Virus record (IMG/VR): IMGVR_UViG_3300007734_000758
Strand: one strand, 5' to 3'
Source of the DNA: a virus
Length of the DNA stretch: 64,000 nt
Numbering within the stretch: the first letter of the stretch is position 1; every line of letters begins with the position of its first letter. The notes beneath the pieces are model-generated. The model did not search any database. It was not told the DNA's origin and saw nothing but the letters and a program-made list of their open reading frames with translations. Shown here in pieces: positions 19,459 through 59,205 of this stretch. The position numbers and the translations under genes are program-made.

Positions 19459-19482
19459 ATATTAATAAATATGTAGTAGGAT

Positions 19483-20740: not shown

Positions 20741-20853
20741 AATATTGATATAGTATCTAATATAGAATAATTAGTTGATACTAACAAGTTGATAAGATCG
20801 GGATGTGAAAAAGAATCATTGCACAAACCTAACAAATGTAACAGTTCAGTCAT
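20710..20853 (-). CDS. small hypothetical protein, 47 aa (not in ORF track)
   Basis: MTELLHLLGLCNDSFSHPDLINLL...; fills the gap and overlaps both neighbours. Confidence 0.4.
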   Translation of the reverse strand: MTELLHLLGLCNDSFSHPDLINLLVSTNYSILDTISILWTRIRLIKQ

Positions 20854-21253: not shown

Positions 21254-21545
21254 AACTTTCCTCTTTAATTAATTTATGATAGTCTCGTAATTTCGCAGCT
21301 GCTTCATAATCTTCTATCCGTACTGCATATGATTCCATATCGACTAACATCCTATCAAAATCCATGTCAAACTCTTCCTCTAATATGGATTGTATCATTA
21401 GTTTATGAATCAATGAAAGATTCGAAGATGCTAATTCAGGATGATAATTGTATGATTCCAACATGCTGGTAGGAAGCTCAACGCCCGACTGAATTAACTT
21501 AAGTAATATAGCAGCTTTTAATCTACCTACCAAATCATTTTTCAT
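21225..21545 (-). CDS. hypothetical protein with C-terminal UVR (UvrB/UvrC) motif
   Basis: AVRIEDYEAAAKLRD. Confidence 0.7.
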   Translation of the reverse strand: MKNDLVGRLKAAILLKLIQSGVELPTSMLESYNYHPELASSNLSLIHKLMIQSILEEEFDMDFDRMLVDMESYAVRIEDYEAAAKLRDYHKLIKEESYDKTTDAAR

Positions 21546-24558: not shown

Positions 24559-24601
24559 TGGGTGTCCTTTAATAATAAATATGGTGATAAATGGAAAAAC
24601 A

Positions 24602-25501: not shown

Positions 25502-25526
25502 TTACTTTTTTAAAAGATAAGAAAAA

Positions 25527-25998
25527 ACCTTAGGGCAAACAAATTTATTGAATACTTAATTTTTTAATCTTATTCTTGGCTACTGGAATTGTTACAACTA
25601 ACAGACCATTTTCTAATTTGGCCGTTGCCCTTGTAACATCATATTTAGCAGAAATTTTGTAGCCTAAGTTAAAAGAACTACGTTTGATACCACGATATAA
25701 CGTTTTTCTGGTATCGGTGTTTGTTTGTTTGTTATAACTGATATGTACACATGCATCCTCTAAGGTTACATCCACATCATCTTTTGTTAAACCAACACAA
25801 GCCACCTCAATTGATAGTGTCTCTTCGGTTTCATAAATGTCTACGGGATGTACTCTAGATACTGTGTTCGTTAATGCACTGAAAGCATTGTCTGTCGTGT
25901 TAAAGAAATCACGAAATAGGATGTCAAAGCTATCCATAAAAACTCCTTTTTTTTAATTGTTACTTGAATCAATTAATCTATTTGTACTGCCCTAAGGT
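25527..25998. repeat. 11-bp perfect inverted repeat flanking hsp20
   Basis: ACCTTAGGGCA 25527-25537 and TGCCCTAAGGT 25988-25998, extendable by ACAAA/TTTGT. Confidence 0.8.
25545..25937 (-). CDS. small heat shock protein (Hsp20)
   Basis: PVDIYE, RGIKRSSF, AKLENGLLVVTIP. Confidence 0.92.
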   Translation of the reverse strand: MDSFDILFRDFFNTTDNAFSALTNTVSRVHPVDIYETEETLSIEVACVGLTKDDVDVTLEDACVHISYNKQTNTDTRKTLYRGIKRSSFNLGYKISAKYDVTRATAKLENGLLVVTIPVAKNKIKKLSIQ

Positions 25999-26465: not shown

Positions 26466-26480
26466 AACCTAATATAAGAA

Positions 26481-30668: not shown

Positions 30669-32525
30669 TTATTTGATTTCGCAAGCACCACCGGCGCAGG
30701 CTAATTCACCAGATAAATCTGTGTTATCATCTAACTCAATTACATGACGCAGATCTACTTCTGTTAACGATTTCATTAATTCGTGGTATCGTTCTTCTGT
30801 AATATCCTCAAACGGACTTTGTATATATGTATGATCCGAATACGGAAGTACTGATAGACCGCTATATGCATCACGATTTTCCCACATCCACTCACCCACA
30901 GGTTCCCATTCTTCTGGTTTAAGTGATACCGTTGCTGATATATTGTGCATATTAGATCCGGTACGGTGACCTGGTTCGATCCACTCTTTACGTACACGCT
31001 TAACACGTTCTAACAATTCTAAAGCAGACTCAGTACGTAAAATAGATCCGGTCGGCGCTTTTTGTGGTATTCCAATGACTGCGGTATCGTGCGGTCGGAA
31101 ATATTCATCCTCAACCAATGCAGGATGATTTAGTGCTAAATAAGAATAGATTGCTTCATTCTTTCCTACACGGATTCGACGAATATAGTAATCATTATGC
31201 CATGCATGAATACCGGATGAAGTACCTAATACCAATGAACTAGTACCGGATGGCTTTACCGTTGTGGTACGTGCTGCTTTATTAATTCCTAAAATTTCCG
31301 CTACGCGAGCATTTTCTTCTTTAACTAATTTAGCTGCTTGTTTAATATCATAATCAAATACTTTGTTTGAACCGATACCTGTCATACCTACTCCAATAAG
31401 AGCTTCTTTCTCCGTAGTACGTCTCCATACATCTCTTAAATAATGAAAGTCAGTATAACCTGCTTGCAATGTTCCAATGAACGCAGCACCTTTAACTCTT
31501 TGATTAAAGTCTTCTTGCGATTCAATATCGCTTACATTTACTTCACAAAGGTTACAGAATTGATATGGTCTTAATGCAATCTCCGCACAAGGATTAGTTC
31601 CCCAATCTTTATCGTTAGTAAAGAAGATACCTGGCTCTCCTGCTCCTGAAGCTTCAATACGTTTCCATAAGTCCATAAAATATTCTTTAGTTACTTTATG
31701 TCTTACAAGTGCTGCTGAGTTATTTGCACGACCACGCTGCGGGTTGAGTTCCCACCATGCGCCCGACTTACAAGCAATCATTTCATCGTCATCAGCACTG
31801 AATAAAGAAATAAGTGCAGCACGACGAATACCACCTGCCAATACAGCATCTGCAATATGGCATACAATATCATGAACTTCTATCGGACTTAATTTATCGC
31901 CGTTATGTTTTGAATCTAGGATTCCTTCAATCTTAATTAAGCACTCTTTAAGCGGTTGAGGTCCTGGTGCCTTACCACCTGAAGTTACTAACCGTGCTCC
32001 CTTCGGCCGAATATCTGAAAAATCAAATTCAACTCTAGGTGATCCAGAAAAGTAACTCTTAGTGAGAGTCTTTATTGCATCTGCCCAACCTTCAATTGAA
32101 TCTGCAATAAGATACCTACGTTTACGGTCACTATTAGGTTTACGTATTTCTGGTAACTTTTCTACATGATGCTTTTGTACACTGAAACCTACTCCAGTAC
32201 CACCTAAAAGTAAAAACATCGTTTCACTAAAAGCACGGATATCATCAATTGGCAAATATGCACAATTGTATATTCGATTCGGAGAGATTTCAATCGGCTT
32301 GCCTGCAAACTGCATTGACCTCATAGATGGTAATATTTTTTTATCATATACCAACTTATAAACCTCTTTAATCTCATCGGTTAACTGGGGATACTTTTTA
32401 AGATGCATCTCCATATTCCTGGTAACTATTTCATTCCAGGTTTCGCGCCTTTCTAGATACTGCTGATACTTGGCGTATTTCATAAAAGTAGAAATTTCGC
32501 TTAATATCGAATTCGATAATTCCAT
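30669..32525 (-). CDS. nrdJ: class II (B12-dependent) ribonucleotide reductase
   Basis: YNC, GTGVGFS, RRAALI, TNPCAEI, CNL, VKPSGT, C-terminal ACAGGACEI; no small subunit nearby. Confidence 0.9.
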   Translation of the reverse strand: MELSNSILSEISTFMKYAKYQQYLERRETWNEIVTRNMEMHLKKYPQLTDEIKEVYKLVYDKKILPSMRSMQFAGKPIEISPNRIYNCAYLPIDDIRAFSETMFLLLGGTGVGFSVQKHHVEKLPEIRKPNSDRKRRYLIADSIEGWADAIKTLTKSYFSGSPRVEFDFSDIRPKGARLVTSGGKAPGPQPLKECLIKIEGILDSKHNGDKLSPIEVHDIVCHIADAVLAGGIRRAALISLFSADDDEMIACKSGAWWELNPQRGRANNSAALVRHKVTKEYFMDLWKRIEASGAGEPGIFFTNDKDWGTNPCAEIALRPYQFCNLCEVNVSDIESQEDFNQRVKGAAFIGTLQAGYTDFHYLRDVWRRTTEKEALIGVGMTGIGSNKVFDYDIKQAAKLVKEENARVAEILGINKAARTTTVKPSGTSSLVLGTSSGIHAWHNDYYIRRIRVGKNEAIYSYLALNHPALVEDEYFRPHDTAVIGIPQKAPTGSILRTESALELLERVKRVRKEWIEPGHRTGSNMHNISATVSLKPEEWEPVGEWMWENRDAYSGLSVLPYSDHTYIQSPFEDITEERYHELMKSLTEVDLRHVIELDDNTDLSGELACAGGACEIK

Positions 32526-32617
32526 TAATCCTTTCCTCGTTTAATAAATTAAATAATATTCGTTCTCATCCGAAACATTTATAGATGACTGTAGCGCTGA
32601 CATCATCTATAAATATC

Positions 32618-33976: not shown

Positions 33977-34013
33977 ACGTCTGAATATATTTTAAAAATC
34001 GAAATAATACAAA

Positions 34014-37030: not shown

Positions 37031-37081
37031 TCAACCAATCTTGTATCGTATTTTTACTTTCGTACTAAACGGATCCACACA
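37031..37081 (-). mobile_element. split intein N-fragment (16 aa, CVDPFSTKVKIRYKIG)
   Basis: Cys start directly after FGDPW, then TGA. Confidence 0.85.
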
Positions 37082-37759
37082 CCAGGGATCTCCGAAACTT
37101 ACTCCTAATCGAGTCCTAAGCTGGTTTGTAAAGATTAAACAGATACGTTCACGGGCAATCATATTAGTAATCTTACGCATTGCCTTAGAAAGGATAATTG
37201 ATTTAGACGTAGCATAACCATCCTTATCATAATCCGCTGCCTGTTCAATCTTGGTAGATGCACCCATAATAGAATCGACTACAATAGTAACCAACCTATC
37301 TTTAGAGGATTTTCGAATTGATTCAACAATATTCTCAATCGCTTGGAAGATGTCCTCAATGGTTTCTAATGGAACATACAACATTGTATTTAGATCCAAA
37401 CCAATCGCTTCCAAAAATTCCCTACTGACAGCACTCTCAGTATCAATATATACTGCTAAGCCACCCTTTTGTTGGGTAGAAACGAGTGCATGTGCTGCAA
37501 GTAAAGATTTTCCCGAAGCCTCGAGCCCAGTAATCTCTGAAATTCGCCCTACCGGAAATCCTCCATTCGGTCGGTTAGCGATTGCTAAATCTAATAACGA
37601 TGAACCGGTTGATACGAATTCATTTACATCTGCAGGAGTATCAGTATCTCCATCTAAGAAGTACGCCACCTTATAATTGGTACTCTTAAACTGCTTGTTA
37701 AGATTCGCTGCTAGTGTGGATGCTAAATCATCCAACACTTCTAATTTTGTTTTGTCCAT
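37031..37759 (-). CDS. recA: RecA N-terminal half with short N-intein
   Basis: STGS..LD.A, GGFPVGRI.EITGLEASGKS, YIDTE, VVDS, FTNQLR. Confidence 0.95.
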   Translation of the reverse strand: MDKTKLEVLDDLASTLAANLNKQFKSTNYKVAYFLDGDTDTPADVNEFVSTGSSLLDLAIANRPNGGFPVGRISEITGLEASGKSLLAAHALVSTQQKGGLAVYIDTESAVSREFLEAIGLDLNTMLYVPLETIEDIFQAIENIVESIRKSSKDRLVTIVVDSIMGASTKIEQAADYDKDGYATSKSIILSKAMRKITNMIARERICLIFTNQLRTRLGVSFGDPWCVDPFSTKVKIRYKIG

Positions 37760-37771
37760 TTGAACTCCCTA

Positions 37772-38530
37772 TTAAGAATTGAATAATGAATCGAATGCGG
37801 CGGATACATCTTTAACACCGGTTGATTTTGCAGGTGCTGCGGTTTCTGATTCCGTATCCTCGTCACCAGCAGTTGCAGTGTTTTCAGGATTCATCCAATT
37901 TTCTAATGCAGTACGCAACTCTTCATAAGTTGGTTCATTAAACAAATCTGTAATCGTAGGTTGTTCTTTAATAAGATTGATTACATCCGGATCTGCAGTG
38001 ATAGGCGTAGTATTCGGTTTAACACGTATCTGTGTTTTAGGATATGCACCAGGTTTTTCTGCTGCAATAAATTCAACAGTAATATCACGTCCCGCTTTCG
38101 GATCTGTGATATCGCCGTAATCCGGATCTACCATGAAACTCAGCAATTCAGAATAAACTGACTTACCGAAGCCCCAAAATTTAACACCTTCATTCTCCTT
38201 ACCACGAACCAGGATCGGTACATATGTACGCATTTTAGGTTCTAACTTTTTACCCATACGCCATTCATCAGAGTTTCCAGATGTCTTTAATTTTTCAGCG
38301 AATTCTACAATTGGGTCAGCCTTACCGAAAGAAGCGGGAGAGAGATAGATCTTCTTTCCGATGTCATAATGAAACAACAATTCAATAAATGGATTTTCTT
38401 TATTGTGCTTGTAAGGTACGATTCGAATCTGATGTGTACCTGGTTCAGGCTTCCAAATATTGGTTTGTTTTGTGGTCTGTTTCTGTAACTGATTAAGTTT
38501 CGATTTGATTAAATCTAAGTTGATTGCCAT
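37772..38530 (-). CDS. single-stranded DNA-binding protein (gp32-like)
   Basis: WKP..G...IRIVP, DP+.E, DITDP..GRD, acidic tail ending FDSLF. Confidence 0.8.
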   Translation of the reverse strand: MAINLDLIKSKLNQLQKQTTKQTNIWKPEPGTHQIRIVPYKHNKENPFIELLFHYDIGKKIYLSPASFGKADPIVEFAEKLKTSGNSDEWRMGKKLEPKMRTYVPILVRGKENEGVKFWGFGKSVYSELLSFMVDPDYGDITDPKAGRDITVEFIAAEKPGAYPKTQIRVKPNTTPITADPDVINLIKEQPTITDLFNEPTYEELRTALENWMNPENTATAGDEDTESETAAPAKSTGVKDVSAAFDSLFNS

Positions 38531-38604
38531 AAGTAATCCTTTGGTTTAAATTGTTAAGTAATAATTGATTTAAATATATAAAAATAATTCGTTAAGTACA
38601 AATG

Positions 38605-44370: not shown

Positions 44371-44394
44371 ATACTATAAATATCGTAACATGTA

Positions 44395-46596: not shown

Positions 46597-48713
46597 TATG
46601 CGAATGAATTATTTACCTTTACCTGTTCTCCAATTGCTCCAACTGCTCCCCTACCTATAACTATCTGCGTACTGCGAACTGCATTTGCAAATGCGTCTGC
46701 CATACGATTATAATCTATTTCAGGAGCAGAACCGCCTCTACCACCTAAATTAGTACCAGCAACAATGGTATCTCTATCATTGAGTGCATATGCTCCTTCC
46801 GGGCCACTTAATACTCTACTGTATCCTGCAGGACCGGATAACGGCGACATGACCATATCATCCTGTTTACTTATCAATCTTTCCAATCCACCAGCGACTG
46901 CAGCTGCTGCAGCAATGCCTAACGCTGCTTTTACCGGATTAGTTGCTGCTCGTGCGACAGCGAGACCAATCGCTTGACGTTTTGCATATAACATTCGAGC
47001 ACCAACAATCGCTAATATCGGCAATAAATATTTCATACCGCTTACAATCAAACTAACTGTCTGCGCAATAAACGAGAAGATAGGGGCAATTGCACTAACA
47101 ATCGATAAAATCGGAGGCATTAATTCAGATTTTATTTTATCTAAACTAGTAGTTAATTGTTCCGTTGCCTGTACACTTTTAGCTCGGTTTGCAACCTCTT
47201 CTGAAGTCAGGTTATTTATATTCCCTAAATCACTTCCATATTTTGATACTAATGCAGCCTCCTCAGCTGTCATGTTCATTGTCTTTTCCTGCAATACCAT
47301 TGAACGCTGCAATTCATCTACAGTTAAGCCAGTAGCAGTTGCAATTGCATTACGTTGTAACGCGTTCATTTGTTCGAATTCGGCAATCGAACCTACCTGA
47401 TTCAATACCTCTTTAGTTGCACCTGCAATATCACCCTCAATCGCCAATCTTCTTGCGGCATCGAAATTTAACTGCCTACCAATCATTGCAGATGCTTCAA
47501 ACTGTGCGGTTAATGATTTTTCAATATCAAGTAAACCTTCTGCGACAGTCGATGCTTTTTCTAATGAGAGGCCTATTTTTGCCATCTCAACCGCAGCTTT
47601 GGCTAATGCTTTAGGATTTCCTGCAAAGTATTTAGATGCAACGCCTGCATTCTTTGCAATATCTTCCATTACCTTAGCAGGCTGTACACCGGCAGCTTCT
47701 GCCAAAGCCATCGTAGCAGTCGATATGTCTGATGCTACTTGTGGCGATACATTTCCTATCTGTTCAAATGATCTTTGTACCTGAGCAACAGTATCTACAC
47801 TAACACCAAACGCATCTGCCATACCAGCTACATTTTGTACAGTTTCTGCTGATATTAGGTTTAAATTACCAAACTCTTTAACCAATGCTACGTTTGCATC
47901 TAGTATTTCTTTCTGTGTAGATAATCTATTTTCCGAAGATGCCTGTAACTCATAACTCTGTTTTACTAATTCTGCTGATTGGTCGACAGTAAGTCCAGTA
48001 GCAGTTGCGGTTTCTTCTGCGGATTGTCTGAATTTATCTAATACAATGAACGCACCGGCAATCAATCCAACCGTCGCTGCCATGGCTAATTGTGCACCGC
48101 TAACATACGTACCAAATTTTTTCATACCGGCACTGAGTGCTTGCATCGGACTTTCGCCCCGTTTCAATGATTCACCTATAGCACCGATCGAATCAGATAT
48201 TCCTTTTGATACTTTAGAACCTAAATTATCTAAACCCAAAGCTTTTTGTAAAAAACCGCCGGCCGGTAATGACTTAAAAACCTTATCTAATGTGGTTTGT
48301 AGTTTTTCTGACTGATCTACCGCCATATTTAACGCTTGACCAAAAAATGGCATCTTTTTATTAATCTGAGCAATATTTCTTAATTGTTTTCGTTGCGCTT
48401 CGATTATTCTCAATTGTACTTCATAAGCCTCGCGAGTAATTTTACCAATAGTAACTGATGTATCAAGTTCTTCTTCTTTCGATTTTAATATCTTTGCTGC
48501 ATTAGTAAAATTCTTTTTATTAAATGAAACAAGCGATTTAACCGTATCAGTGAGTTTACCGGTTAAATCTAGATATTCTTCTTGTAATTCGTTTAATTCT
48601 TGCTGTGCCCGTAAAACGTCATTTACATACTCTTCATATTGAGCGGGTGTAATAGTACCCCGTTCTTTTTGCTGAAATAGCTTATCAATTTCACTAATTC
48701 TTTTTTTTGCCAT
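46596..48713 (-). CDS. tape measure protein
   Basis: Long Ala/Leu-rich helical protein with hydrophobic patches downstream of tube and chaperone. Confidence 0.8.
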   Translation of the reverse strand: MAKKRISEIDKLFQQKERGTITPAQYEEYVNDVLRAQQELNELQEEYLDLTGKLTDTVKSLVSFNKKNFTNAAKILKSKEEELDTSVTIGKITREAYEVQLRIIEAQRKQLRNIAQINKKMPFFGQALNMAVDQSEKLQTTLDKVFKSLPAGGFLQKALGLDNLGSKVSKGISDSIGAIGESLKRGESPMQALSAGMKKFGTYVSGAQLAMAATVGLIAGAFIVLDKFRQSAEETATATGLTVDQSAELVKQSYELQASSENRLSTQKEILDANVALVKEFGNLNLISAETVQNVAGMADAFGVSVDTVAQVQRSFEQIGNVSPQVASDISTATMALAEAAGVQPAKVMEDIAKNAGVASKYFAGNPKALAKAAVEMAKIGLSLEKASTVAEGLLDIEKSLTAQFEASAMIGRQLNFDAARRLAIEGDIAGATKEVLNQVGSIAEFEQMNALQRNAIATATGLTVDELQRSMVLQEKTMNMTAEEAALVSKYGSDLGNINNLTSEEVANRAKSVQATEQLTTSLDKIKSELMPPILSIVSAIAPIFSFIAQTVSLIVSGMKYLLPILAIVGARMLYAKRQAIGLAVARAATNPVKAALGIAAAAAVAGGLERLISKQDDMVMSPLSGPAGYSRVLSGPEGAYALNDRDTIVAGTNLGGRGGSAPEIDYNRMADAFANAVRSTQIVIGRGAVGAIGEQVKVNNSFA

Positions 48714-48973
48714 TACTTTATATGACCTTTATCTCTATACAACTTAACTAAATCGTTTTCTGGATCTATTTTAGCCAAATGCTTAATAAGCGAAATCATA
48801 CGTTTGTTATAGTTTGCATAATCTATGAATGCCGCTTTTAATTCAGGATCATCTTCCATTTGATGAATTGCTTTTTTTAAGGTACGTTGTACTTTAGGCG
48901 CCAAGAAAGTACGCAATAAGATTGCAGCCACATTTTCTTGTATACGTATACGATAGTTTCTTTCAGCACTCAT
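48713..48973 (-). CDS. hypothetical protein
   Basis: Late motif and AGGA upstream. Confidence 0.6.
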   Translation of the reverse strand: MSAERNYRIRIQENVAAILLRTFLAPKVQRTLKKAIHQMEDDPELKAAFIDYANYNKRMISLIKHLAKIDPENDLVKLYRDKGHIK

Positions 48974-49005
48974 ATTATTCCTGATTATATACTATAAATA
49001 TGTAA

Positions 49006-49228
49006 CTATTTCTTTTTAGGCGTACGCATCTGTGCCTTACGGACTGCCTTTTTCTCAGCATCACGTTGATCTTTTAGAACCTTTTCGATTCTAGAGATAT
49101 AGAAATTCCTAATAAATACTGGTAAATTGTATACATCCGCCCAATTGAATCCACCCTTACCGAAATAAATCAGATCGAATATTGATTCATGTATACGAAT
49201 TCTATCTTTAGGTTGTAGGCCAAAAAAA
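49006..49228 (-). CDS. frameshift extension of the tail assembly chaperone (gp51-like segment)
   Basis: FFGLQPKD...WADVYNLPVFIRNFYI begins at the 7-T run in the +1 frame of the upstream gene. Confidence 0.65.
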
Positions 49229-50068
49229 GTCCACTCCAATTGGAAGGGTAGCACGAAAGGGATCGCCGGTTTCCTCATCCGTAAACTCCAATTCAAGATT
49301 TACATCGGGAGTCATCATTTTTATGTATGCACGGAGAGCTCTTGAATCTGCTGCTAATAATTCTTTACTAACAAAATTCCTAATAATAGCCTTATCTTTA
49401 TTTCCATCAACTGAAACTATAGAATGGATCAACCTGGTAGAAAGCAATGTATCAGTGCCACCAGATATCTTTTTAGTACGTTTTACCTCTTCCTCAATCT
49501 CAGCCTGTTCTCGGTGTGAAAGGAGCTTATATGTAACTGTACGTTTAGACACGGGAAGTGTAAATTCAAATTCATTTACATTTTTAGGTAATGTATCAAA
49601 ATCAACCTCAATATTTTCTATACGCGTCAAATCAACGGTTTCTTTCTGTTGATTTCCGGAAGGCGTTTCAATCTCAACATCATAATCCTTTCCATATCCT
49701 AGAATCCTGGCAGTGATCATAATTGCATTCTTATCACATAAGAGTAAGTCTTGATAATTAACTCGTTTACCCTCACCATTTCCTACAATCATACTTTGGA
49801 ATAATTTATCTAAAACTACTCCCTGTTTGATATAGGACTGCGTAGTCAGGATATCTTCCTCTTTTGCGGTCATATATTTCATTTCTACCTTACCGGATGA
49901 GAGTGGATTTTCTGCCGGATAAAACCATCCTTTCGATGGCAATTCTAAAATTTCAGTCGGGAATTGGTATTTACCTGACTCACCTGTAGTTTGCTGTTCG
50001 TACTGTGCAGCAATTTCTTTTGCAATATCTGCATTTGGCTTTTTGTAATCATCTGTAACGATTGGCAT
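49208..50068 (-). CDS. tail/baseplate assembly chaperone (gp26-like)
   Basis: LPSKG.FY, MTAKEEDIL, LPVSK, DSRALR, FFWP; between tube and tape measure. Confidence 0.75.
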   Translation of the reverse strand: MPIVTDDYKKPNADIAKEIAAQYEQQTTGESGKYQFPTEILELPSKGWFYPAENPLSSGKVEMKYMTAKEEDILTTQSYIKQGVVLDKLFQSMIVGNGEGKRVNYQDLLLCDKNAIMITARILGYGKDYDVEIETPSGNQQKETVDLTRIENIEVDFDTLPKNVNEFEFTLPVSKRTVTYKLLSHREQAEIEEEVKRTKKISGGTDTLLSTRLIHSIVSVDGNKDKAIIRNFVSKELLAADSRALRAYIKMMTPDVNLELEFTDEETGDPFRATLPIGVDFFWPTT

Positions 50069-50104
50069 AGTGTAACTTCCTTTATTATAAATATAGATAA
50101 CATG

Positions 50105-50161: not shown

Positions 50162-50650
50162 TTAGAATTGCAATATGCAATAGTCGCAGCCAATGGTTAA
50201 TTCGATATTAACTGCATCTTCAGTCGACCAATCCATATTACCAAAGGTTGCACTCTTAATAAATGCGCCTTTAATAGTCCATTCTTCAACCTTATCACCG
50301 ATAGGACCTAATGAATTGAGTGTCAAATCTTTCTTGTAAAAGTCAGAATAACCATCACGGCCGGTTACTGATTCGTGGTGTAAACGTACCCACTCCATTA
50401 CTGCCTGAGCACCGGAAGGTACAATTGGATCATACAATGTCATTGTAATGTCCTGCCAACGTGACTTGCCCTTCAATTTACGTTCAACGTTAATGTGGTC
50501 AAGAACAATCTCACCTTGGTCAATTGATGGTCTATCAGTTGCTTTAATAATGAATGACGGGATACCATCAACATACATAATAAATCGCATGGCCACTTTC
50601 GGCTCATACGCGGTAAAAAATATTTCGGTAGGGTCTAAAATTTCTGGCAT
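50162..50650 (-). CDS. tail tube protein (gp19-like)
   Basis: EPK..RF, RP, GK..W.DIT.TLYDP, YKKD, E.W.+KGAF. Confidence 0.85.
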   Translation of the reverse strand: MPEILDPTEIFFTAYEPKVAMRFIMYVDGIPSFIIKATDRPSIDQGEIVLDHINVERKLKGKSRWQDITMTLYDPIVPSGAQAVMEWVRLHHESVTGRDGYSDFYKKDLTLNSLGPIGDKVEEWTIKGAFIKSATFGNMDWSTEDAVNIELTIGCDYCILQF

Positions 50651-50693
50651 AGGTTTGTTTCCTTTATACTAATAAATATCTACAAATTGAATT

Positions 50694-51178: not shown

Positions 51179-52693
51179 TTAACGATTAAAAAGTACATAT
51201 TTTAGGTTGCCACAATCCCATACCCGATCAAATTTCATACTCAACATATTCTCCCACTCGGTCTTCGATTTATCACCTCCCAATTTATTGACAATCCTGC
51301 CTTTCGTGAAATTAAATCTATGATACCTGTGTATGCCTTTAATATACCAGTAATTAGGATCCGATATCGACTCCAACTTAAACCCATTCTTTTCATATAT
51401 GTTATCAGTGACTGATGTCCAGCGCCTATCTGCATATGATATAATACTAGATGGATTGTACTTCGCTACAACGAATTTTATCATTTTATCGAACATGCCC
51501 GGCGTGGAGGTATTTAATTCTACCGCATATCTGACAATCTCTAAAGTATTCGTTAAACCTTTATTGGAACCTAACGATTTTCTAGGATTAGATAACGACA
51601 TAACTGAAACCAACGCACCATCATAAAACGCCCCTATATGTATTTTTGCTGATATACTGCCTTGAATATGATTTGCATTTAAAAAATCCTTTACTTGATT
51701 GTGTGCTATTTCCTGGAGTGTACATTTTCTAGTGTGAACGGTTCTTCTATCTAATTTATTAACCTGGTTCAAAATCTTTTTTTCTACAATCTCACGTTTA
51801 GATAACCACTCATCTTGGAATATGTGTATTAGTTTGATACCATTAGCTTCGGCAATTTCTGTTTTATTTAAATGGTACTTTTTCGTTTTACCTCCATGAT
51901 ATTCAGAGTGCCAGTACAACCCATTATATTCAATAGCTAGATCAAAATCCGGCAAAAATATATCAAATTCTACGCCCAAATTTCTATAAGGCGCTATTAC
52001 TCGAATATCATGTTCTTTTATGAAATCAATTAGTTGAAGTTCTTCTTTTGATTGATAACAGTACTTCCTCGATATATTTAATTTTGAAGTGATTGAACTA
52101 TGTAAATCATGTAAACGGTCACTTAATATCGGCGCATTTGGAAAACGCCGCTTGTAATCACTTATACTGATACCGTGAATTGATTTCATATGAGTGTTTG
52201 ATATCTTATGGAAATCATCACCGCACAGTAAACACTTTACAGACGATTCTATGACTTTTTTGTCGAAGTATCTATTCCATAAACCAGAATAGGTTGGGTA
52301 CTTATCGATAAATGATTCAGGTGTGTACCCATGTGAATGTATATGTATCGTAAAACATCCACTCTTATTCATAAGATCTTTGGTTTTCCATTCACATTCC
52401 GGACAACCTATATATTCACACTGCTGTCTATCGATAACATCATAATGATTTGAGATAGAAGTAAACTGTATATTGTGTTTTGATTCAATATGTATCCGTA
52501 AGTGACCAGATACATTATATACATCATTACTAATATGATCACATAATTTACACTTTATCTGCTTATCGGTTTGTTTTTTCTTTTTTGTACAGCGGCTAGT
52601 ATTGTATTCAGTATCTGAAAACTTACAAGCGTTAGAACAGTATATTCGTTTAACATTATCGAAAACATTCTCGCACATCTTACATTTTTTCAT
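51179..52693 (-). CDS. Hef-like free-standing homing endonuclease with zinc fingers
   Basis: Several CxxC/C2H2 units; DIFLP..LAIEYNGLYWHS, IHIFQDEW, NHIQG, YADRRW, WDCG. Confidence 0.8.
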   Translation of the reverse strand: MKKCKMCENVFDNVKRIYCSNACKFSDTEYNTSRCTKKKKQTDKQIKCKLCDHISNDVYNVSGHLRIHIESKHNIQFTSISNHYDVIDRQQCEYIGCPECEWKTKDLMNKSGCFTIHIHSHGYTPESFIDKYPTYSGLWNRYFDKKVIESSVKCLLCGDDFHKISNTHMKSIHGISISDYKRRFPNAPILSDRLHDLHSSITSKLNISRKYCYQSKEELQLIDFIKEHDIRVIAPYRNLGVEFDIFLPDFDLAIEYNGLYWHSEYHGGKTKKYHLNKTEIAEANGIKLIHIFQDEWLSKREIVEKKILNQVNKLDRRTVHTRKCTLQEIAHNQVKDFLNANHIQGSISAKIHIGAFYDGALVSVMSLSNPRKSLGSNKGLTNTLEIVRYAVELNTSTPGMFDKMIKFVVAKYNPSSIISYADRRWTSVTDNIYEKNGFKLESISDPNYWYIKGIHRYHRFNFTKGRIVNKLGGDKSKTEWENMLSMKFDRVWDCGNLKYVLFNR

Positions 52694-52762
52694 CTTTACT
52701 CCGTATATTAGGATCTAATATAATAATAAATATACGAACAAACAAGAAAACATACAGGTTGT

Positions 52763-52809: not shown

Positions 52810-54498
52810 TTAGATAGTATTTAAACCTTTTACATATATTTTTCCGTAGAATTCCGGACGAACTACTTTTTTCGCATAACGAGTCATTACCCCTTTACGC
52901 GGTGTGAAGTTCGTAGGATCATAAACAAGTGGTGTCATGATCAATGGAATATACGGACTGTAAACAGCACCTGTCTCAAGGAACTGAGAACCACGATATC
53001 CTAACAGGATCAGGTTTTCAGTCATATAAGGATTCTTATATACTTGGAAGCGGCTGTTTAACTGGCCGATCTTCTGAACACCCATAGCAAACTGCATTTT
53101 GTTGCCATCGGTATCGGCAGCGTATCCAGGAATAGATTCGAGGATCGTTGCAACGGTAGGAGATACTACTACGAAGTTAGCACCACCACGCATTGTCAAC
53201 TGATGAATCTTGTTACTTACCTTCTGGATTTTGGTACCAAGAGTTTGGAACCATCCACCCTGGGTATTGTAGAATCCACCAGTGGTTGCAGACTGCTGAG
53301 TGAATGCTGAACCATCCCAAATTTCGTTGTTAACCGCTGACCAATATTCTGTGGTCTGTGCGTTGTTAACTAACATATCCAGGATCTCTAAATCGATCTC
53401 GTGAGAGATATATTCAGATAACATTGAAGTCAATTCTGCTTCAGCGTCGATTGCATGGTATGCATTCAAGTCTTGAGCAAATTCAGGAGTCCAAACTGCC
53501 TTTAATTTACGTGTCTTAGCAACGATTGCCTCAGAACGTAATTCAAGGTTGATTTCCGGAATACTTAAATCCTGACCAACTGCAGAAGATCCTTGAGTCT
53601 TACCATCTTCAAAATCACCACGAGTGATATTTGTAGGTTGCTTCTGGTAATATACCTTAGCGGATGCCAATCCATCATTGGCTGCAGAAGCAGATACGAG
53701 GAAGGTAATCGTACCAGCAGCTTTGTTATACTTCGTGAATTCAGGATAGAAAGTGTTAACAGTGCTACCAGAGATAGCAAAACCACGAACGCCATTGAAG
53801 TCAGCGTTAGCGAGTGATGCAGTAGCTACTGTTACTTTCACAATTGAACCAGCAATAATGCTAGCACCAACGCTAGAAGAGAATTCAGTATTGTAGTTAT
53901 AATCTGCATTGGCAGCACCTGTAGCTACGTCAGCTACGGTAAACGTAGTAGAGTTAAGAGTCGAACCGGAGCTTAACAGAGAAGAGGTAACAGCGTTGAT
54001 TGAATAACCAAAACGGCCTGCACCATAAAGACCCTGTGTTCCTGCGGTTCCAGGATTGATGCTAGTACCATTACCACCAGCATCAGTGATACCAAATACT
54101 GAATCAGCCTGAGAAGTACGACCTTGACCAGTTAAGAATCCGAAAGGACCATCCTGGTTAGTGCCGTATTTGAAATCCAGGAAGAATACCAGTCCTGAAG
54201 GCATTGACATAGGCTGTACAGAAACGAAATCTTTTGCCGCAATTTCTGCGAATACACGGCGAACAAGTGGAAGGGCAATACCGTTCCATTCTTCTGAACC
54301 TGCAGAAGTACCAGTTTGGTTAGCCTCGGTAACCAACTGCTTGGCTTGGTTCTCTAACAGAACCGCCATACCGGTCTTTTCGTAGTCCTTTGCAAGACCT
54401 TCGAGAAGACCTGTTTTTTGCCATTTGTCTACTAATGCTTTAGACTTAGCCTGTAAAGCACTGTATTCACTATTTGGCAATAATTGAGATACATTCAT
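52810..54498 (-). CDS. major capsid protein (T4 gp23-like)
   Basis: LVRR, VQPM..PSGL.F, AKTRKLKA.WT.E.AQDL.A.H..DAEAEL, YSPYIPL, PRKGVMTRY. Confidence 0.97.
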   Translation of the reverse strand: MNVSQLLPNSEYSALQAKSKALVDKWQKTGLLEGLAKDYEKTGMAVLLENQAKQLVTEANQTGTSAGSEEWNGIALPLVRRVFAEIAAKDFVSVQPMSMPSGLVFFLDFKYGTNQDGPFGFLTGQGRTSQADSVFGITDAGGNGTSINPGTAGTQGLYGAGRFGYSINAVTSSLLSSGSTLNSTTFTVADVATGAANADYNYNTEFSSSVGASIIAGSIVKVTVATASLANADFNGVRGFAISGSTVNTFYPEFTKYNKAAGTITFLVSASAANDGLASAKVYYQKQPTNITRGDFEDGKTQGSSAVGQDLSIPEINLELRSEAIVAKTRKLKAVWTPEFAQDLNAYHAIDAEAELTSMLSEYISHEIDLEILDMLVNNAQTTEYWSAVNNEIWDGSAFTQQSATTGGFYNTQGGWFQTLGTKIQKVSNKIHQLTMRGGANFVVVSPTVATILESIPGYAADTDGNKMQFAMGVQKIGQLNSRFQVYKNPYMTENLILLGYRGSQFLETGAVYSPYIPLIMTPLVYDPTNFTPRKGVMTRYAKKVVRPEFYGKIYVKGLNTI

Positions 54499-54522
54499 CT
54501 TTTTTTCCTTTTTTTAGATGTT

Positions 54523-55380
54523 TTAAATTAAACCAGCTAAATACTTCATACGATTAGCTAATTCATTGCCTTCGCTTAAGATTTCTTTGCTAGGTGCAGT
54601 TGAACGGCTAGGTTTAGATGCAGCTGATTCTTTAATTGTTTTCTTTGTTGTTTTCGACTTAAATGCTTCACTTAAGGTAGCGTATACTAATTTAACTTCA
54701 CGGATCGTGTTTGCACGGTCAAAGTTTTCAATTACGCGTAATTTTTGTGCTTCACTTAAATCGTAATTTTTAAATAACTTGTTGCTAAATAACAATTTAG
54801 CATTAAGCATGTTCACTTCGTTGATCTGGCTACGAAGGAATTCGATAGTGCGATAGGCTTCTTCTAATTCGTCTTCTTTTTCCTCTTCTTCCTCAACAGT
54901 CTGCTCGGCTTTTTCTTCTTTCATTTCTTCTTCGCCTTCTTCTTCAGACAGTGATTGGATGAGTTCTTCTAGATCGACTTCTTCGCCCTCTTCGCCTTCT
55001 TCCATTTCGTCTTCCATCTCAGCTTCTTTCATTTCTTCAGAATCTTCACCTTCTAATTCACGAATAATAGACTCAAGATCTAAATCTTCGTCTTCTTCTT
55101 CTTCGTACTCTTCTTCCGGTGTTTCATCTTCGAAATCCATTTCAGCTTCAACGTCTTCCATATCATCCTCTTCAGCTTCTTTAGTCATTTCAGGCTCTGT
55201 TAATTCTTCTTCTTCCTTAACAGATTCTTCTTCTTCTTCCATTTCTTCAGAAAGCTTAGCGGATAACATGCTTTGTAACCTAGGGGCAAATGCCTCCTCT
55301 AATGCTAACTTAGCATTCGCTAATGCAGATTCACGTACGGCTTTCGCATCAGCAATTGCTTCTTTTAACAAATCTCTCAT
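54523..55380 (-). CDS. prohead core scaffold protein (gp22-like)
   Basis: Highly acidic coiled coil with many L/I-x-E sites, directly upstream of MCP. Confidence 0.8.
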   Translation of the reverse strand: MRDLLKEAIADAKAVRESALANAKLALEEAFAPRLQSMLSAKLSEEMEEEEESVKEEEELTEPEMTKEAEEDDMEDVEAEMDFEDETPEEEYEEEEDEDLDLESIIRELEGEDSEEMKEAEMEDEMEEGEEGEEVDLEELIQSLSEEEGEEEMKEEKAEQTVEEEEEKEDELEEAYRTIEFLRSQINEVNMLNAKLLFSNKLFKNYDLSEAQKLRVIENFDRANTIREVKLVYATLSEAFKSKTTKKTIKESAASKPSRSTAPSKEILSEGNELANRMKYLAGLI

Positions 55381-55501
55381 GATTTATCCTTTAATTTAAT
55401 TTCAGGAAATAAGATTATTGGAAATCTTAATGGTGGGTAGTTATAATGTAATTGCGTATTAGGCACGCAATATAATTCTATAATATATATGTACGTACAT
55501 G

Positions 55502-55542
55502 AAAAAACATCCAAAATTCTTAAAAAAGTTTCTTGGATGTTT
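55502..55542 (-). terminator. possible terminator after bS21
   Basis: AAACATCCAA/TTGGATGTTT inverted repeat with long loop and T run. Confidence 0.45.
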
Positions 55543-55567: not shown

Positions 55568-55783
55568 TTACCGGAACTGCTCCCGATAAATAGCGTTTAA
55601 AATTTGGCGCCTACGACGTACTGACGGTTTTTCATATTCCTGTAGTTCGTGTAATCTTTCGATGTTCTTTGATCGTTTTAAGTCTTGTTTCCAAATTTTG
55701 ATAGCAGTGTTGATGTCATTGTTAATTACTCGTGCTCCCGTCCCTACTATCATAGACGCCAAGTGTTTTTTGTTTAATCCCAT
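55568..55783 (-). CDS. rpsU: phage-encoded ribosomal protein bS21
   Basis: RVINNDINTAIKIWKQ...ERLHELQEYEKPSVRRR matches bS21 pattern; ATG 55783 preferred over the track start. Confidence 0.8.
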   Translation of the reverse strand: MGLNKKHLASMIVGTGARVINNDINTAIKIWKQDLKRSKNIERLHELQEYEKPSVRRRRQILNAIYREQFR

Positions 55784-55829
55784 GTTGTTTTGTTTTTGTT
55801 TATAACTGTTTGTATTTAAATAACCTGTA

Positions 55830-56075
55830 TTATTCTTCTCCCGCAACCATATCAGCAACAGCAGCTTCATAAACCCCTAACATATCTACCAATGCATTTG
55901 CCTGCTGATTGGTCATTGAACCTGCAGATATCATATTCTTAAGAAATGTATTTATCTGTCCCTTTACCTGTTTAACGGCAGCAGTATCTGAACCGGCTAT
56001 CGGTACACGTACTGCTTCGGACATTACTTTACCGATTTCTTCTCGGATGATTGATTGTAATTCTGAACGTTTCAT
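55830..56075 (-). CDS. small protein with MKRSEL..IIREE leader
   Basis: Shared leader; head gene cluster. Confidence 0.65.
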   Translation of the reverse strand: MKRSELQSIIREEIGKVMSEAVRVPIAGSDTAAVKQVKGQINTFLKNMISAGSMTNQQANALVDMLGVYEAAVADMVAGEE

Positions 56076-56467
56076 TTTAATGATTCGCCTACCTTATAGT
56101 ACTTACTTAATACTTGACCCATATCATCATATGCGGCCTCTAAACGTTGCTGCAATCCTGACATTTCAGTTGCGGTCTTTTCAAATATCTTATATGCTTC
56201 TTTTAACTGCTTCATGTGACGAGATACTGTAACATTGTCAAACCAATGCTCAGATTCTTGAAGCGTTAAATGTTCAGCAATCTCAATAATATTGCTAATT
56301 TCCCGTAACATTTCATTTACATTTTTAGCAGTATAGATCGAGTCTCCATAATTATGGAAATTAGCTACTGCCTCCATGAATTGACGCTTCTCTTCAGAAG
56401 TGAATTTTTTAGGTTCTTCCTTCTCTCCGAGGTATTTTTCATTAATCAATGATTTTAAATTTGCCAT
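56072..56467 (-). CDS. hypothetical head-cluster protein
   Basis: MANLKSLINE; helical; WFD.VTV.R.MK. Confidence 0.65.
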   Translation of the reverse strand: MANLKSLINEKYLGEKEEPKKFTSEEKRQFMEAVANFHNYGDSIYTAKNVNEMLREISNIIEIAEHLTLQESEHWFDNVTVSRHMKQLKEAYKIFEKTATEMSGLQQRLEAAYDDMGQVLSKYYKVGESLK

Positions 56468-56488: not shown

Positions 56489-56728
56489 TCAATACTTTGC
56501 GCCGATACGTTTAAGAATAGCCGAATGAGTCTTAAGCATTTCTTCTAATGACTTTTTTACTCCCATTACATCCGCACTTGCGGTTATAGATTTAGATAGA
56601 TTATTTATATCACGTACAATACGAGCATAATTCTTAACCGGATCTGGTTTACTAGATGAAAACATATCTTCACTCATTACTTTATCTACTTCTTCTCGGA
56701 TAATATTTCTTAATTCTGATGCTTTCAT
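56489..56728 (-). CDS. small protein with MKASEL..IIREE leader
   Basis: Shared leader; late motif 5 nt upstream. Confidence 0.65.
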   Translation of the reverse strand: MKASELRNIIREEVDKVMSEDMFSSSKPDPVKNYARIVRDINNLSKSITASADVMGVKKSLEEMLKTHSAILKRIGAKY

Positions 56729-56757
56729 ATACTATAAATATCTATTAATTTTACTTA

Positions 56758-57549
56758 TTACTTAAATTCGGGATATGTACGTTTCATGTTATCCAGGATA
56801 AACTTAGCACACACATCATCTCCCTCTTTTGTAGTATCTAAGTGGATTGATGTTTGGCGTTGCTTCATCCAGGCAAATTTAAAAGCAAAACCATCACTAC
56901 GTACAGTTTCACCATCTGTCCAAAGATATCCGCATGAATCATTTACCCAAACGTTATTAAGGCGACTATTGTTTGCAATACAGTCTTCTACTAAGAATTT
57001 ATTTGACCAACCATTATGATATCCGGATGGGGTTACAAATTTAGTATCAGCCACTTTGTATTCACACAGGCGAGAAAATAATTCTACATGCTTCAGGTTC
57101 GGACATTTTCCTTTTGACTGAGAAACAAAATCTTTCATCTTGTTTTTCAATGCAATTGCTGATGCTGGGAAAGCATTGCTTCCGTCACGCAAATCATCGT
57201 GACACATAATAATACCTTGAACATCTGCATAGGTATAACCATTAGCAGAAAGAGTTGAGGTTACATTCTTCCAACCCGCACCATCAGGCATCAACCAATC
57301 ATTTATGTCTTGTGCACCGACACAACAGTTGAGGATATCAACATCTACAAGTGCATTGCCTAATTTTTCTAACTGCGTTGATATTTGGCCCGGAGTACTT
57401 GCTCCGATACAAATAAATACAATCTTCTTATTTCCTACCTTACTTAGTATAGGTCGCTTTGACAAATGATCTGGGGTAGATCCTAATTTAACAGGATAGC
57501 CGTTATATACGGCTGATGTGTTATTAATTAATGGAGTATAAGTTGGCAT
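56758..57549 (-). CDS. hypothetical protein, possible SGNH-like hydrolase
   Basis: FICIGAST, NCCVGAQ, C-terminal SIHL...G. Confidence 0.4.
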   Translation of the reverse strand: MPTYTPLINNTSAVYNGYPVKLGSTPDHLSKRPILSKVGNKKIVFICIGASTPGQISTQLEKLGNALVDVDILNCCVGAQDINDWLMPDGAGWKNVTSTLSANGYTYADVQGIIMCHDDLRDGSNAFPASAIALKNKMKDFVSQSKGKCPNLKHVELFSRLCEYKVADTKFVTPSGYHNGWSNKFLVEDCIANNSRLNNVWVNDSCGYLWTDGETVRSDGFAFKFAWMKQRQTSIHLDTTKEGDDVCAKFILDNMKRTYPEFK

Positions 57550-57569
57550 ATTGTTCCTTTTTTTATTTA

Positions 57570-57785
57570 TTAACCAGCTAACGGATCTTCTGTCGGAACA
57601 GGTCCGGCATCATATCCATATAAACTAAGCCTTGTCTGTAATTGTACGGGGTCAGCGAACGCATCTTCTGTAGTAATATTACTATATAGACTTGTACGCG
57701 TTTGTAATTCAGGATTAGCAAATACATCCTCTACGGGTCCTGCCGGATCCGGTGCATAAATTGATACCATATCTACTAGTGCCAT
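57570..57785 (-). CDS. small acidic protein with internal repeat
   Basis: EDVFANPELQTRTSLY / EDAFADPVQLQTRLSLY; AGPV twice. Confidence 0.6.
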   Translation of the reverse strand: MALVDMVSIYAPDPAGPVEDVFANPELQTRTSLYSNITTEDAFADPVQLQTRLSLYGYDAGPVPTEDPLAG

Positions 57786-57797
57786 AAATTCCTCGGT

Positions 57798-58412
57798 TTA
57801 AACGTTACCTAATATATCTGTTACGATATTGTTAATTCGCTGAATCTGATCAAATTTAGGATTTGCGTTGATTGATTCCTGAATCTTTGATGGCGACAGA
57901 AATGCACCATGAGTCGATGGATTAGATACAAAATCAAACGCAATTAATTCGAAGTCCGGTTGAACTTCAACAGCTCCCGTTTCACGTAATTCTTTTACTG
58001 AACCCAATCCACGTGAACTGATTCCTAAACGAATACCTGCCTTAAACAATTCCTTAAGGATATTACCTGCAGGTGTGGACAACACTTCAACTGTTCCTAC
58101 TAAATCATCGCCATCCCAATGCATCTCTAACACATTGTGTGATACGTTACTTAAATTTACCACACTAGAATCCGGATGATCTAATTCTCCCAATGCACGA
58201 CGTTCACCAATAAATGTTTTAGCATATTTGGTGGCTTCACGCATTAAGATTTCTTTAGGGTAGATTCTACCGTTATGATTCTTAGCATTAGCACGCTGCA
58301 ATACGCCAGATACAACTAATCGGCCATTATTGCGTTCCATAGACTCATTAATCTGTCTAGGGGATACTTCAAATAACGTATAATCTACTAATAATTGCTT
58401 GTCCATGATCAT
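57798..58412 (-). CDS. prohead protease (T4 gp21-like)
   Basis: NHNGRIYP, GELDHP, VSH, TPAG, GISSRGLGS, FDFVSNPS. Confidence 0.95.
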   Translation of the reverse strand: MIMDKQLLVDYTLFEVSPRQINESMERNNGRLVVSGVLQRANAKNHNGRIYPKEILMREATKYAKTFIGERRALGELDHPDSSVVNLSNVSHNVLEMHWDGDDLVGTVEVLSTPAGNILKELFKAGIRLGISSRGLGSVKELRETGAVEVQPDFELIAFDFVSNPSTHGAFLSPSKIQESINANPKFDQIQRINNIVTDILGNV

Positions 58413-58573
58413 ATATATTTTTTATTGTTAAAGTATTGGCTATTCACATACTCCATATACCTACGCCATTTATCCTGTTCAATAGCATATAATCGTTTCT
58501 GCTCGTTAATAGGCAGTTTACTATTCTTCGGATCTTTACTAAATTCTTGCCAGGTACGTGAACGTGGTATCAT
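58409..58573 (-). CDS. 54-aa hypothetical protein (not in ORF track)
   Basis: MIPRSRTWQEF...NNKKYI; ATGA overlaps at both ends. Confidence 0.65.
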   Translation of the reverse strand: MIPRSRTWQEFSKDPKNSKLPINEQKRLYAIEQDKWRRYMEYVNSQYFNNKKYI

Positions 58574-59205
58574 TGTCCCAACTCCTTCATCTTGTTTGAA
58601 ATACGGATTAACCTTTCAGATATTTTAGAAAAGTTTTTCTTTGAACGTTTCCAATAAGAGTTAGATTTAAAACCGGTTTCATTCTTTAATTTGTAATTAC
58701 GATCTAATATCGTTTCAACCTCACCCAATAATTTATTTATTTGGTTGATTGATTTATTTATTTTCTGTTCGTTGGTAGCAGTGTCGTCTTTTTTATAATC
58801 ACGATAACTAATCTCGTTTAATTGACGCATCATCTTCTTATATGTGCTTTCCATCGGTTTGAAGTATTTTTTTGTTTTCGGTACTTTCTTAAATCCCATC
58901 ATTTCAATACGGTCATCAGGAATTTTACCAAAAGCATACGGAGTCAAATAACCTTCAACTCCACCAGTAGTACTCGCTTCATCCATTAATGGCTCATAAC
59001 CCTGGCCCTTCATGATATCTACGAGATATTCCCAATAGGCTTCAGGTACGATATAGTACCCATCCTCATCCATATCAATATATGCTTGAGCATCAGAACG
59101 CATTAAAAATAATTCACCTTCCGGATCGTTAACGATGAAAGGTATCATATTTTCATTGGTTTGCTTCTTAGGAAAATCACGTTTCATAATCAATGATATA
59201 CTCAT
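58570..59205 (-). CDS. hypothetical head-cluster protein
   Basis: EASTTGGVEGYLTPYAF, basic coiled-coil C-terminus. Confidence 0.65.
   Translation of the reverse strand: MSISLIMKRDFPKKQTNENMIPFIVNDPEGELFLMRSDAQAYIDMDEDGYYIVPEAYWEYLVDIMKGQGYEPLMDEASTTGGVEGYLTPYAFGKIPDDRIEMMGFKKVPKTKKYFKPMESTYKKMMRQLNEISYRDYKKDDTATNEQKINKSINQINKLLGEVETILDRNYKLKNETGFKSNSYWKRSKKNFSKISERLIRISNKMKELGQ

Follow-up and report, generated by a model that had tools for sequence, protein, structure and literature searches.

A phage-encoded, divergent bS21 and its association with short, well-spaced Shine-Dalgarno motifs in a phage with a probable Bacteroidota host and in its relatives

Introduction

We demonstrate that an uncultured phage whose host probably belongs to the Bacteroidota carries a gene for ribosomal protein bS21, that its genes are enriched for Shine-Dalgarno (SD) motifs at the spacing typical of working SDs, and that bS21 and SD use are associated across phages related to it by major capsid protein (MCP). 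The reading we prefer, with a probability of roughly 40%, is that the phage bS21 enables SD use. A functional link between the two traits is plausible, its basis being a correlation with few independent events and a host deduced from the genome.

bS21 is the ribosomal protein that phages encode most often. In Flavobacterium johnsoniae, Tyr54 of bS21, which stacks against A1534, directs the anti-SD into a pocket (PMC7797042), and it has already been published that ribosomes in which this bS21-dependent pocket is compromised, or from which bS21 is absent, gain SD use (PMC9976891, PMC13000457). Ribosomes free of bS21 translate SD-less mRNAs poorly and SD mRNAs well, and wild-type cells contain a small fraction of such ribosomes; the sole SD known to work in F. 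johnsoniae requires a pairing energy below −13 kcal/mol (PMC13000457). McNutt et al. 2023 (PMC9976891) speculated on the exchange of bS21 during infection.

Results

The bS21 gene lies in the head-gene block

The DNA analysed (the window) is a stretch of 64,000 nucleotides, the reverse strand of C1:59263-123262, from an IMG/VR record of 157,151 bp with direct terminal repeats (IMGVR_UViG_3300007734_000758). Its G+C content is 37% and nearly all of its genes are on one strand. The MCP shares 57% identity with that of Flavobacterium phage vB_FspM_immuto (hereafter immuto) and 59% with that of 'Microcystis' phage Mel-JY01, while T4-type capsid proteins are more distant.

The 71-aa open reading frame at 55568-55783 (-) is a genuine bS21 gene, as a preliminary description of the window had proposed: its product scored 33.3 bits against PF01165 (Ribosomal_S21; cut-off 27, E = 3.9 × 10−8) and 28.2 bits against TIGR00030, marginally below the cut-off of 28.95. 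Gene callers reported a 100-aa reading frame. We preferred the 71-aa start because more than 50 homologues from a library of 1.8 billion proteins, 70-80 residues long, gave alignments that begin at residue 3-6. A word-based homologue search with the window bS21 recovered three near-identical proteins only, and the cultured-phage collection yielded no match by tblastn of bS21 or megablast of 10 kb. The protein could be aligned with the bS21 chains of solved ribosomes. Its AF2 model (pLDDT 84) has helices at residues 3-10, 24-38, 40-48 and 53-70, and the top Foldseek matches were mitochondrial bS21m and bacterial 30S bS21 (TM 0.6, probability 0.63-0.92), with E-values all above 0.1 for this very small protein.

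The gene lies between that of the prohead protease (57798-58412) and those of the scaffold and MCP, and all its neighbours share its orientation. bS21 closes a series of four small genes (56489-56728, 56072-56467, 55830-56075, then bS21) behind a phage-type promoter-like motif, ATATTTAT, at 56734..56741 (-), 5 nt before the ATG of the unit's first gene. A hairpin with a trailing U-run (55505..55541 (-); −16.4 kcal/mol, z = −3.16, equalled by 0 of 200 shuffles) stands immediately past the bS21 stop codon and is likely to be the intrinsic terminator of the unit. No host-type promoter was found for bS21 itself in the window phage. Its 46-nt leader (55784..55829 (-)) had been described as A/C-rich and SD-free, and it is indeed rich in A and C and contains no AGGA, GGAG or GAGG.

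The protein is divergent and retains the tyrosine equivalent to Tyr54

The divergence of the phage bS21 noted earlier was borne out: identity was 36-45% to host and phage relatives alike, the protein sits on a long branch, and the tree places the host proteins on one side of a 98% branch and all phage proteins on the other. Residues 1 to about 20 form a conserved N-terminal extension. All phage bS21 proteins of this lineage share a basic extension of 11-20 residues and a divergent first helix, which are absent from 31 host proteins. The extension was considered as a capsid-targeting tag, given the head-core location of the gene, and this was rejected as it is without the hydrophobic-x-Glu motif of the neighbouring putative tags. 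Bacteroidia-type bS21 has 63-65 residues, no N-terminal extension, a weakly basic C-terminal domain and a tail of about 10 residues; the window protein does not fit this type in length and termini, having about 10 additional N-terminal residues and a 5-residue tail past the tyrosine.

That tyrosine, Tyr66 in the motif NAIYRE, is the equivalent of F. johnsoniae Tyr54. The C-terminal helix reads KPSV-RRRRQILNAIYRE in the window protein and KPSV-KRREQIIRAIYRE in the host protein, and is near that of one sampled Bacteroidia protein, Tyr54 included. Tyr occupies this position in 29 of the 31 sampled Bacteroidia bS21 proteins and Arg in the other two. The preliminary description had proposed that the divergent bS21, in replacing the host protein, frees the anti-SD; the route as written there is not supported, since Tyr54 and a host-like C-terminal helix are kept and SD use is independent of residue 54 among the relatives analysed below. 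With Tyr54 retained, any change in the window phage cannot come from its loss. The phage genome contained no homologue of bS18 or bS6, and no anti-SD or SD mimic (7 hits for the extended SD/anti-SD pattern, 10 for the control pattern).

Short SD motifs are enriched at the expected distance from start codons

In all genomes alike, genes were called from the first ATG of non-overlapping open reading frames of at least 50 aa, and a core SD was defined as AGGA, GGAG or GAGG located 3-11 nt before the start. Core SDs preceded 35-37 of 192 genes (~18%). The controls were lower, with 12 of 192 when the interval was moved a further 30 nt upstream, 8.9 ± 2.9 in shuffled sequences and 6.0% before internal ATGs, so that the enrichment is about 3-fold genome-wide (binomial P = 5 × 10−9). 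A lack of AGGA enrichment had been named beforehand as a refutation of the ribosome switch, and the opposite was found, with 31 AGGA motifs at a spacer of 3-10 nt where 7.0 were expected. Spacing peaked at 6-9 nt from the ATG, the range typical of working SDs, and was independent of promoter distance. The complementary control motifs TCCT, CTCC and CCTC showed no enrichment. The SD enrichment is thus confirmed as real and non-random. An unpositioned duplex-energy score against the 16S tail gave no enrichment over coding controls, which are richer in G+C. Because this score was null while the positioned motif was enriched, the signal consists of a short, correctly spaced motif and not of strong pairing; the phage SD duplexes range from −4 to −10 kcal/mol.

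SDs were most frequent in the head/tail block, where 12 of 26 genes (46%) carried one, compared with 8-22% elsewhere. All those located here are on the (-) strand. The scaffold gene (54523-55380) has AAAGGA at 55387..55390 (spacer 6), the major capsid gene (52810-54498) has AAAAAAAGGA at 54506..54509 (spacer 7), and the gene of a 504-aa protein (51179-52693) has GGAG at 52699..52702. SDs also precede the genes of the tail tube (50162-50650; SD 50660..50663), a baseplate-hub-like protein (49208-50068; 50078..50081) and an 86-aa product (48713-48973; 48979..48982). On the other side of bS21 they precede a 263-aa gene (56758-57549; 57555..57558), a 71-aa gene (57570-57785; GAGGA at 57790..57794) and a 54-aa open reading frame (58409-58573; AGGAG at 58582..58586). 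Away from the head genes, SDs were found for ssb (37772-38530; 38537..38540), the N-terminal part of UvsX/RecA (37031-37759; 37765..37768), ribonucleotide reductase (30669-32525; GAGGAAAGGA at 32529..32538), hsp20 (25545-25937; AGGAG at 25943..25947), a 159-aa gene (24079-24558; 24565..24568) and a GroES-like co-chaperonin (20936-21253; GAGGA at 21259..21263). At all 12 genes for which an SD had been claimed, AGGA, GGAG or GAGG lies 3-9 nt before the ATG.

PHROGs labels among the SD-led genes include tail tube, hub, ssb, UvsX, ribonucleotide reductase, Hsp20 and GroES-like protein. SDs mark abundant proteins, including the products of ssb, uvsX, nrdJ and hsp20 and the GroES-like protein, and not only late genes, a caveat that the preliminary description had itself raised. 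The 504-aa protein encoded just after the MCP has a full-length match to PHROGs labelled 'homing endonuclease/HNH'; this label looks doubtful, because the gene sits among virion genes and is SD-led.

Promoter types and candidate leaderless genes

Two promoter-like motifs, ATATTTAT and TTG-N20-TAnnTT, are common to the window phage, Mel-JY01 and immuto. ATATTTAT was 7-fold enriched upstream of starts, at 32-35 genes (sites include 44376-44383 and 19464-19471). The host-type motif TTG-N20-TAnnTT occurred within 40 nt of 22 starts in the window phage and of 44 in immuto, and the 20-nt spacer alone was enriched beside starts, other spacers giving 0-3 (0-2 for those of 16-24 nt in the window phage). 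One example lies at 33984..34012 (-), and others, with the ATG mostly at or near +1, at 52717-52745, 26471-26499, 25514-25542, 20759-20787, 18553-18581, 15376-15404 and 8578-8606. The strict Bacteroidota pattern TTG-N18-22-TAnnTTTG was also tried; it was enriched in Mel-JY01 only, and neither in the window phage nor in immuto.

At 9 of the 22 host-type promoters the ATG lies 5-7 nt past the TAnnTT box and thus coincides with the predicted +1 (seven cases) or misses it by a single nucleotide. The gap to the ATG is likewise 5-7 nt for 10 ATATTTAT motifs. Candidate leaderless genes include those behind the host-type promoters at 33984-34012, 26471-26499, 18553-18581, 15376-15404 and 8578-8606 and behind the three ATATTTAT sites located above. 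The earlier impression that many genes of the phage may be leaderless is thus plausible, as judged from motif positions. Leaderless mRNAs make up 5.5% in F. psychrophilum (PMC9723704), and the predicted phage fraction is far higher. An SD was carried by 1 of 21 genes behind host-type promoters and, among genes behind ATATTTAT whose leader is 14 nt or longer, by 7 of 16; this contrast is suggestive, half of the host-type class being leaderless by construction. The ssb gene has a host-type promoter as well as an SD.

The host is probably a member of the Bacteroidota

The phage encodes a host-like GroEL that is 69-77% identical to those of the 60 matching genomes among 61 sampled Bacteroidota, with the top matches in class Bacteroidia. 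Two Ignavibacteria bins gave 68-71% identity and seven further bins 54-66%, with 62-66% for Proteobacteria, Eubacteriales and Omnitrophota. Most leaders in the window phage are A-rich, as in immuto. The GroEL identities, the promoter type shared with immuto, the A-rich leaders and the host-like C-terminal helix of bS21 together indicate that the host is probably a member of the Bacteroidota. TTG-N20-TAnnTT fits the −33/−7 layout of flavobacterial sigma-A (PMC9723704), and the TATATT box equally suits an ordinary sigma-70 promoter. PF01165 was found in 117 of 121 Bacteroidia genomes, a tally that counts in one unpublished genome (G093), which supports no sequence or claim of this work.

By our SD measure, four Bacteroidia genomes scored 2-5% and immuto scored 3%, in both cases below their own controls, which reproduces the known SD-blindness of this group (PMC7797042). 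The earlier supposition of an SD-blind Bacteroidota host is therefore probably correct, given GroEL, promoter type and low SD use in Bacteroidia. We also tried to name the host from metagenome-assembled genome (MAG) bins that contain related MCP genes and rejected this, the bins being taxonomically too mixed. One Flavobacterium MAG bin (G002) contains three small contigs (C196, C197 and C207; L132-L134) with a phage-type bS21 that has Arg54, besides the host rpsU, which is a weak hint that Flavobacterium might be a host of the Arg-type phages.

SD use is associated with bS21 among MCP relatives

We examined SD use in 80 viral contigs related by MCP. In 42 contigs a bS21 gene precedes the MCP gene by 1.3-2.8 kb in the same orientation, and SDs precede 24-65% of local genes in these, against 0-21%, mostly 0, in 17 assessable contigs lacking bS21. 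Pooled SD use was 47% in 12 loci with a Tyr-type bS21, 40% in 30 other bS21-positive loci and 6% in the 17 bS21-negative ones (P = 2 × 10−9, uncorrected for relatedness). At a distance of 6-9 nt from the ATG, AGGA or GGAG is present in the MCP leaders of 40 of 43 bS21-positive loci and of 0 of 18 bS21-negative loci; the former keep this SD despite diverged flanks, whereas the latter have A/C-rich leaders. No bS21 was found elsewhere on the contigs of the bS21-negative records, which include two complete genomes (immuto and one other).

bS21 is missing from three clades of the MCP tree, two of which are forced by well-supported branches. With so few clades lacking bS21, there are two to three independent contrasts; all run in the same direction, and a sign test on them is powerless. 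One such clade (L040, L048, L057), nested among bS21-positive clades, has SDs on 0-4% of genes. A second sample, centred on a bS21-negative clade (L088, L192-L265; 40 assessable loci), had SDs on 14.4% of genes compared with 5.0% in the control, with single loci up to 29%; 14 larger records of this L088-like clade, one of them a complete 297-kb genome, contained no bS21. The overall range of SD use without bS21 (0-0.29) overlaps the low end of the range with bS21, and SD-like sites are not exclusive to bS21 phages. The L088-like clade could represent a third state, or SDs could be useful without a phage bS21. The proposed comparison of bS21-positive with bS21-negative phages thus upholds the expectation in part: SD use tracks bS21 among MCP relatives, but over two to three contrasts and with one bS21-negative clade at 14%.

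Whether residue 54 was Tyr, Arg, Lys or Val made no difference to SD use among the relatives. Between L062 and four other loci (L049, L071, L073, L075) this residue switches between Tyr and Arg in otherwise near-identical bS21 proteins, and across the switch SD content was unchanged where L062 was compared with L049 and L071. In the Tyr-type clade, which includes the window phage, none of the 10 distinct members has an SD in the bS21 leader, although 47% of neighbouring genes are SD-led, and in 7 of 10 bS21 stands behind its own host-type promoter. An SD-free leader combined with such a promoter fits a protein made early by unmodified ribosomes. Most of these relatives (L025-L041) have a TTTG-N19/20-TTATATT promoter 18-31 nt before the bS21 ATG. 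This suggests early expression of their bS21 by host RNA polymerase, whereas Chen et al. 2022 reported late expression.

SD-like motifs inside genes were present at 2-7% in bS21-positive phages and at 9-17% in immuto-like bS21-negative phages, with base composition uncontrolled. Rarer intragenic motifs are expected if the ribosomes translating the bS21-positive phages see SDs.

Discussion

In our preferred reading, the phage bS21 would most likely replace or top up host bS21 on the 30S subunits of the Bacteroidota host. It would have co-evolved with short, well-spaced SDs (AAGGA, GGAG) on the genes of the most abundant phage proteins, namely the capsid, scaffold, tube, hub, ssb, UvsX, ribonucleotide reductase and chaperones, while the remaining phage genes would mostly initiate in the host's manner, from A-rich SD-less leaders or leaderless mRNAs. 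Ribosomes carrying the phage bS21 could then pair their anti-SD with short SDs, which ordinary Bacteroidia ribosomes cannot do, and SD-led messages would gain priority. The bS21 message, being SD-less, would itself be translatable by unmodified ribosomes. We infer in this way that the protein enters ribosomes, exposes the anti-SD and confers a translational advantage. If the change is real, its source might be the divergent N-terminal helix, the basic 11-20-residue extension or the shortened C-terminal tail. We doubt the most specific version, namely that a phage bS21 with its anchoring helix and Tyr54 kept re-specialises SD-blind Bacteroidia ribosomes to read short SDs through its N-terminal extension and divergent first helix, although it merits consideration.

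Several observations argue against our preferred reading. The retained Tyr54 and host-like helix, taken alone, predict continued occlusion of the anti-SD, as Chen et al. concluded for their phages (PMC9723584). The phage SDs, at −4 to −10 kcal/mol, are weaker than the F. johnsoniae requirement of less than −13 kcal/mol (PMC13000457). In addition, ssb, uvsX and nrdJ are SD-led, ssb even with a host-type promoter, and in the Mel-JY01 clade bS21 itself is SD-led.

An unlikely alternative is that the phage bS21 simply does the work of host bS21, with Tyr54 and the pocket intact, and keeps ribosomes replete. Loosely bound bS21 would run short after host shut-off, the phage copy would serve the SD-less majority of genes, and SD-led genes would use bS21-free subunits that accumulate in infection, both traits then being answers to a shortage of bS21. 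The host-like C-terminal helix with its Tyr54 fits this, as do the ~82% of phage genes that are SD-less; bS21-free ribosomes are good on SD mRNAs and exist as a small wild-type fraction (PMC13000457), and their use would also account for the SD enrichment without bS21 in the L088-like clade. Supply alone, however, leaves unexplained the N-terminal extension and divergent first helix, which the 31 host proteins lack, as well as the free change of residue 54 among phages, and the phage SDs are far weaker than the rpsU SD that bS21-free ribosomes use. We consider it similarly unlikely that the two traits have no functional link and that bS21 and SD-rich leaders were co-inherited, through shared descent or through host differences below the level of phylum between clades. 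That bS21 presence maps to few large clades, with two to three independent contrasts only, and that some bS21-negative phages have 10-29% SD, are what co-inheritance would produce. It sits less well with the common direction of all three contrasts, including the nested bS21-negative clade at 0-4%, with an MCP SD kept in 40 of 43 bS21-positive loci despite divergent flanks, and with a bS21 that is consistently SD-free in its clade.

It is less probable again that the host, as a non-Bacteroidia or atypical lineage, reads SDs natively, so that the SDs mirror the host and bS21 serves another purpose. Residue 54 is labile in phage proteins and hence a poor host marker, the MAG bins with related MCP genes are taxonomically mixed, and TTG-N20-TATATT is compatible with an ordinary sigma-70 in a host assigned from sequence. 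Such a host is at odds, however, with a GroEL 69-77% identical to 60 matching Bacteroidota genomes, best in Bacteroidia, and 62-66% identical to those of Proteobacteria, Eubacteriales and Omnitrophota, with A-rich leaders like those of immuto, and with SDs on 18% of genes only and on 1 of 21 behind host-type promoters. Very improbable, finally, is the idea that AGGA does not bind ribosomes and is a purine-rich leader element for mRNA stability, nuclease processing or regulator binding. The motifs are short and the duplex-energy score lacks enrichment, as that idea would have it, but they cluster sharply 6-9 nt ahead of the ATG at any promoter distance, they are the complement of the conserved 16S tail, and the TCCT, CTCC and CCTC controls are not enriched.

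The anti-SD sequestration and rpsU system of F. johnsoniae shares with our proposal the principle that the occupant of the bS21 site decides SD use (PMC7797042, PMC9976891, PMC13000457). There the switch is the absence of bS21 and involves one gene with a 13-bp SD, whereas in the window phage it would be a variant bS21 acting on many short SDs. Autoregulation of the rpsU type, in which Flavobacteriales have an extended SD below −13 kcal/mol before bS21, also differs from the window phage, whose bS21 leader has no SD core. For Pelagibacter phage HTVC008M, incorporation of the phage bS21 into E. coli ribosomes was reported (Mizuno et al. 2019, as cited in PMC9976891); its host belongs to another phylum, and a link to SDs was not described.

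The bS21 myoviruses of freshwater Bacteroidetes described by Chen et al. 2022 (PMC9723584) resemble the window phage in having bS21 in the head block near the protease and MCP genes, an aromatic residue 54, a divergent N-terminal part and a predicted Bacteroidetes host. These features were thus already published, as was the idea that phage bS21 substitutes into Bacteroidetes ribosomes and favours phage mRNAs (PMC9723584). In those phages the TerL-portal-protease-MCP block contains bS21 in reverse orientation, whereas the window bS21 is co-oriented with its neighbours. Chen et al. presented no SD analysis of phage genes and argued that the anti-SD stays blocked through Tyr54; their study reports neither an association between SDs and bS21 among related phages nor that such an association is independent of residue 54 (PMC9723584). 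In our full-text literature search, no paper connected phage SDs with phage bS21 or examined the SD sites of bS21 phages.

Among cultured phages, Mel-JY01 (PP395634) and immuto (MW353175) are the nearest relatives by MCP. Mel-JY01 has bS21 in the same position as the window phage, with Lys at residue 54 and SDs on 28% of genes, and SDs precede its bS21 gene as well as 9 of the 17 genes that follow host-type promoters; immuto lacks bS21 and is depleted in SDs (3%). In Mel-JY01 (L014-L023) we also noted about 15 promoters of the form TTGCAT-N-CGTAnnTTTG located 30-53 nt before genes (for example 62957, 64032, 68717, 69086, 69448 and 143094), which corresponds to the Bacteroidota sigma-A consensus and not to a cyanobacterial one. 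The true host of Mel-JY01 may be a member of the Bacteroidota within a non-axenic Microcystis culture.

If the most specific version considered above is true, it would give the phage a private translation channel for its most abundant proteins, and would provide a function for the ribosomal protein that is commonest in phage genomes. Among well-studied groups, only in Bacteroidia does bS21 determine whether SDs are visible to the ribosome, and reporters, bS21 depletion strains and cryo-EM are already available for F. johnsoniae. The window phage adds the constraint that the effect, if real, cannot rest on the loss of Tyr54. SD-led genes that come and go with a variant bS21 would turn the vague idea of a ribosome hijack into a specific one that is testable in F. 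johnsoniae.
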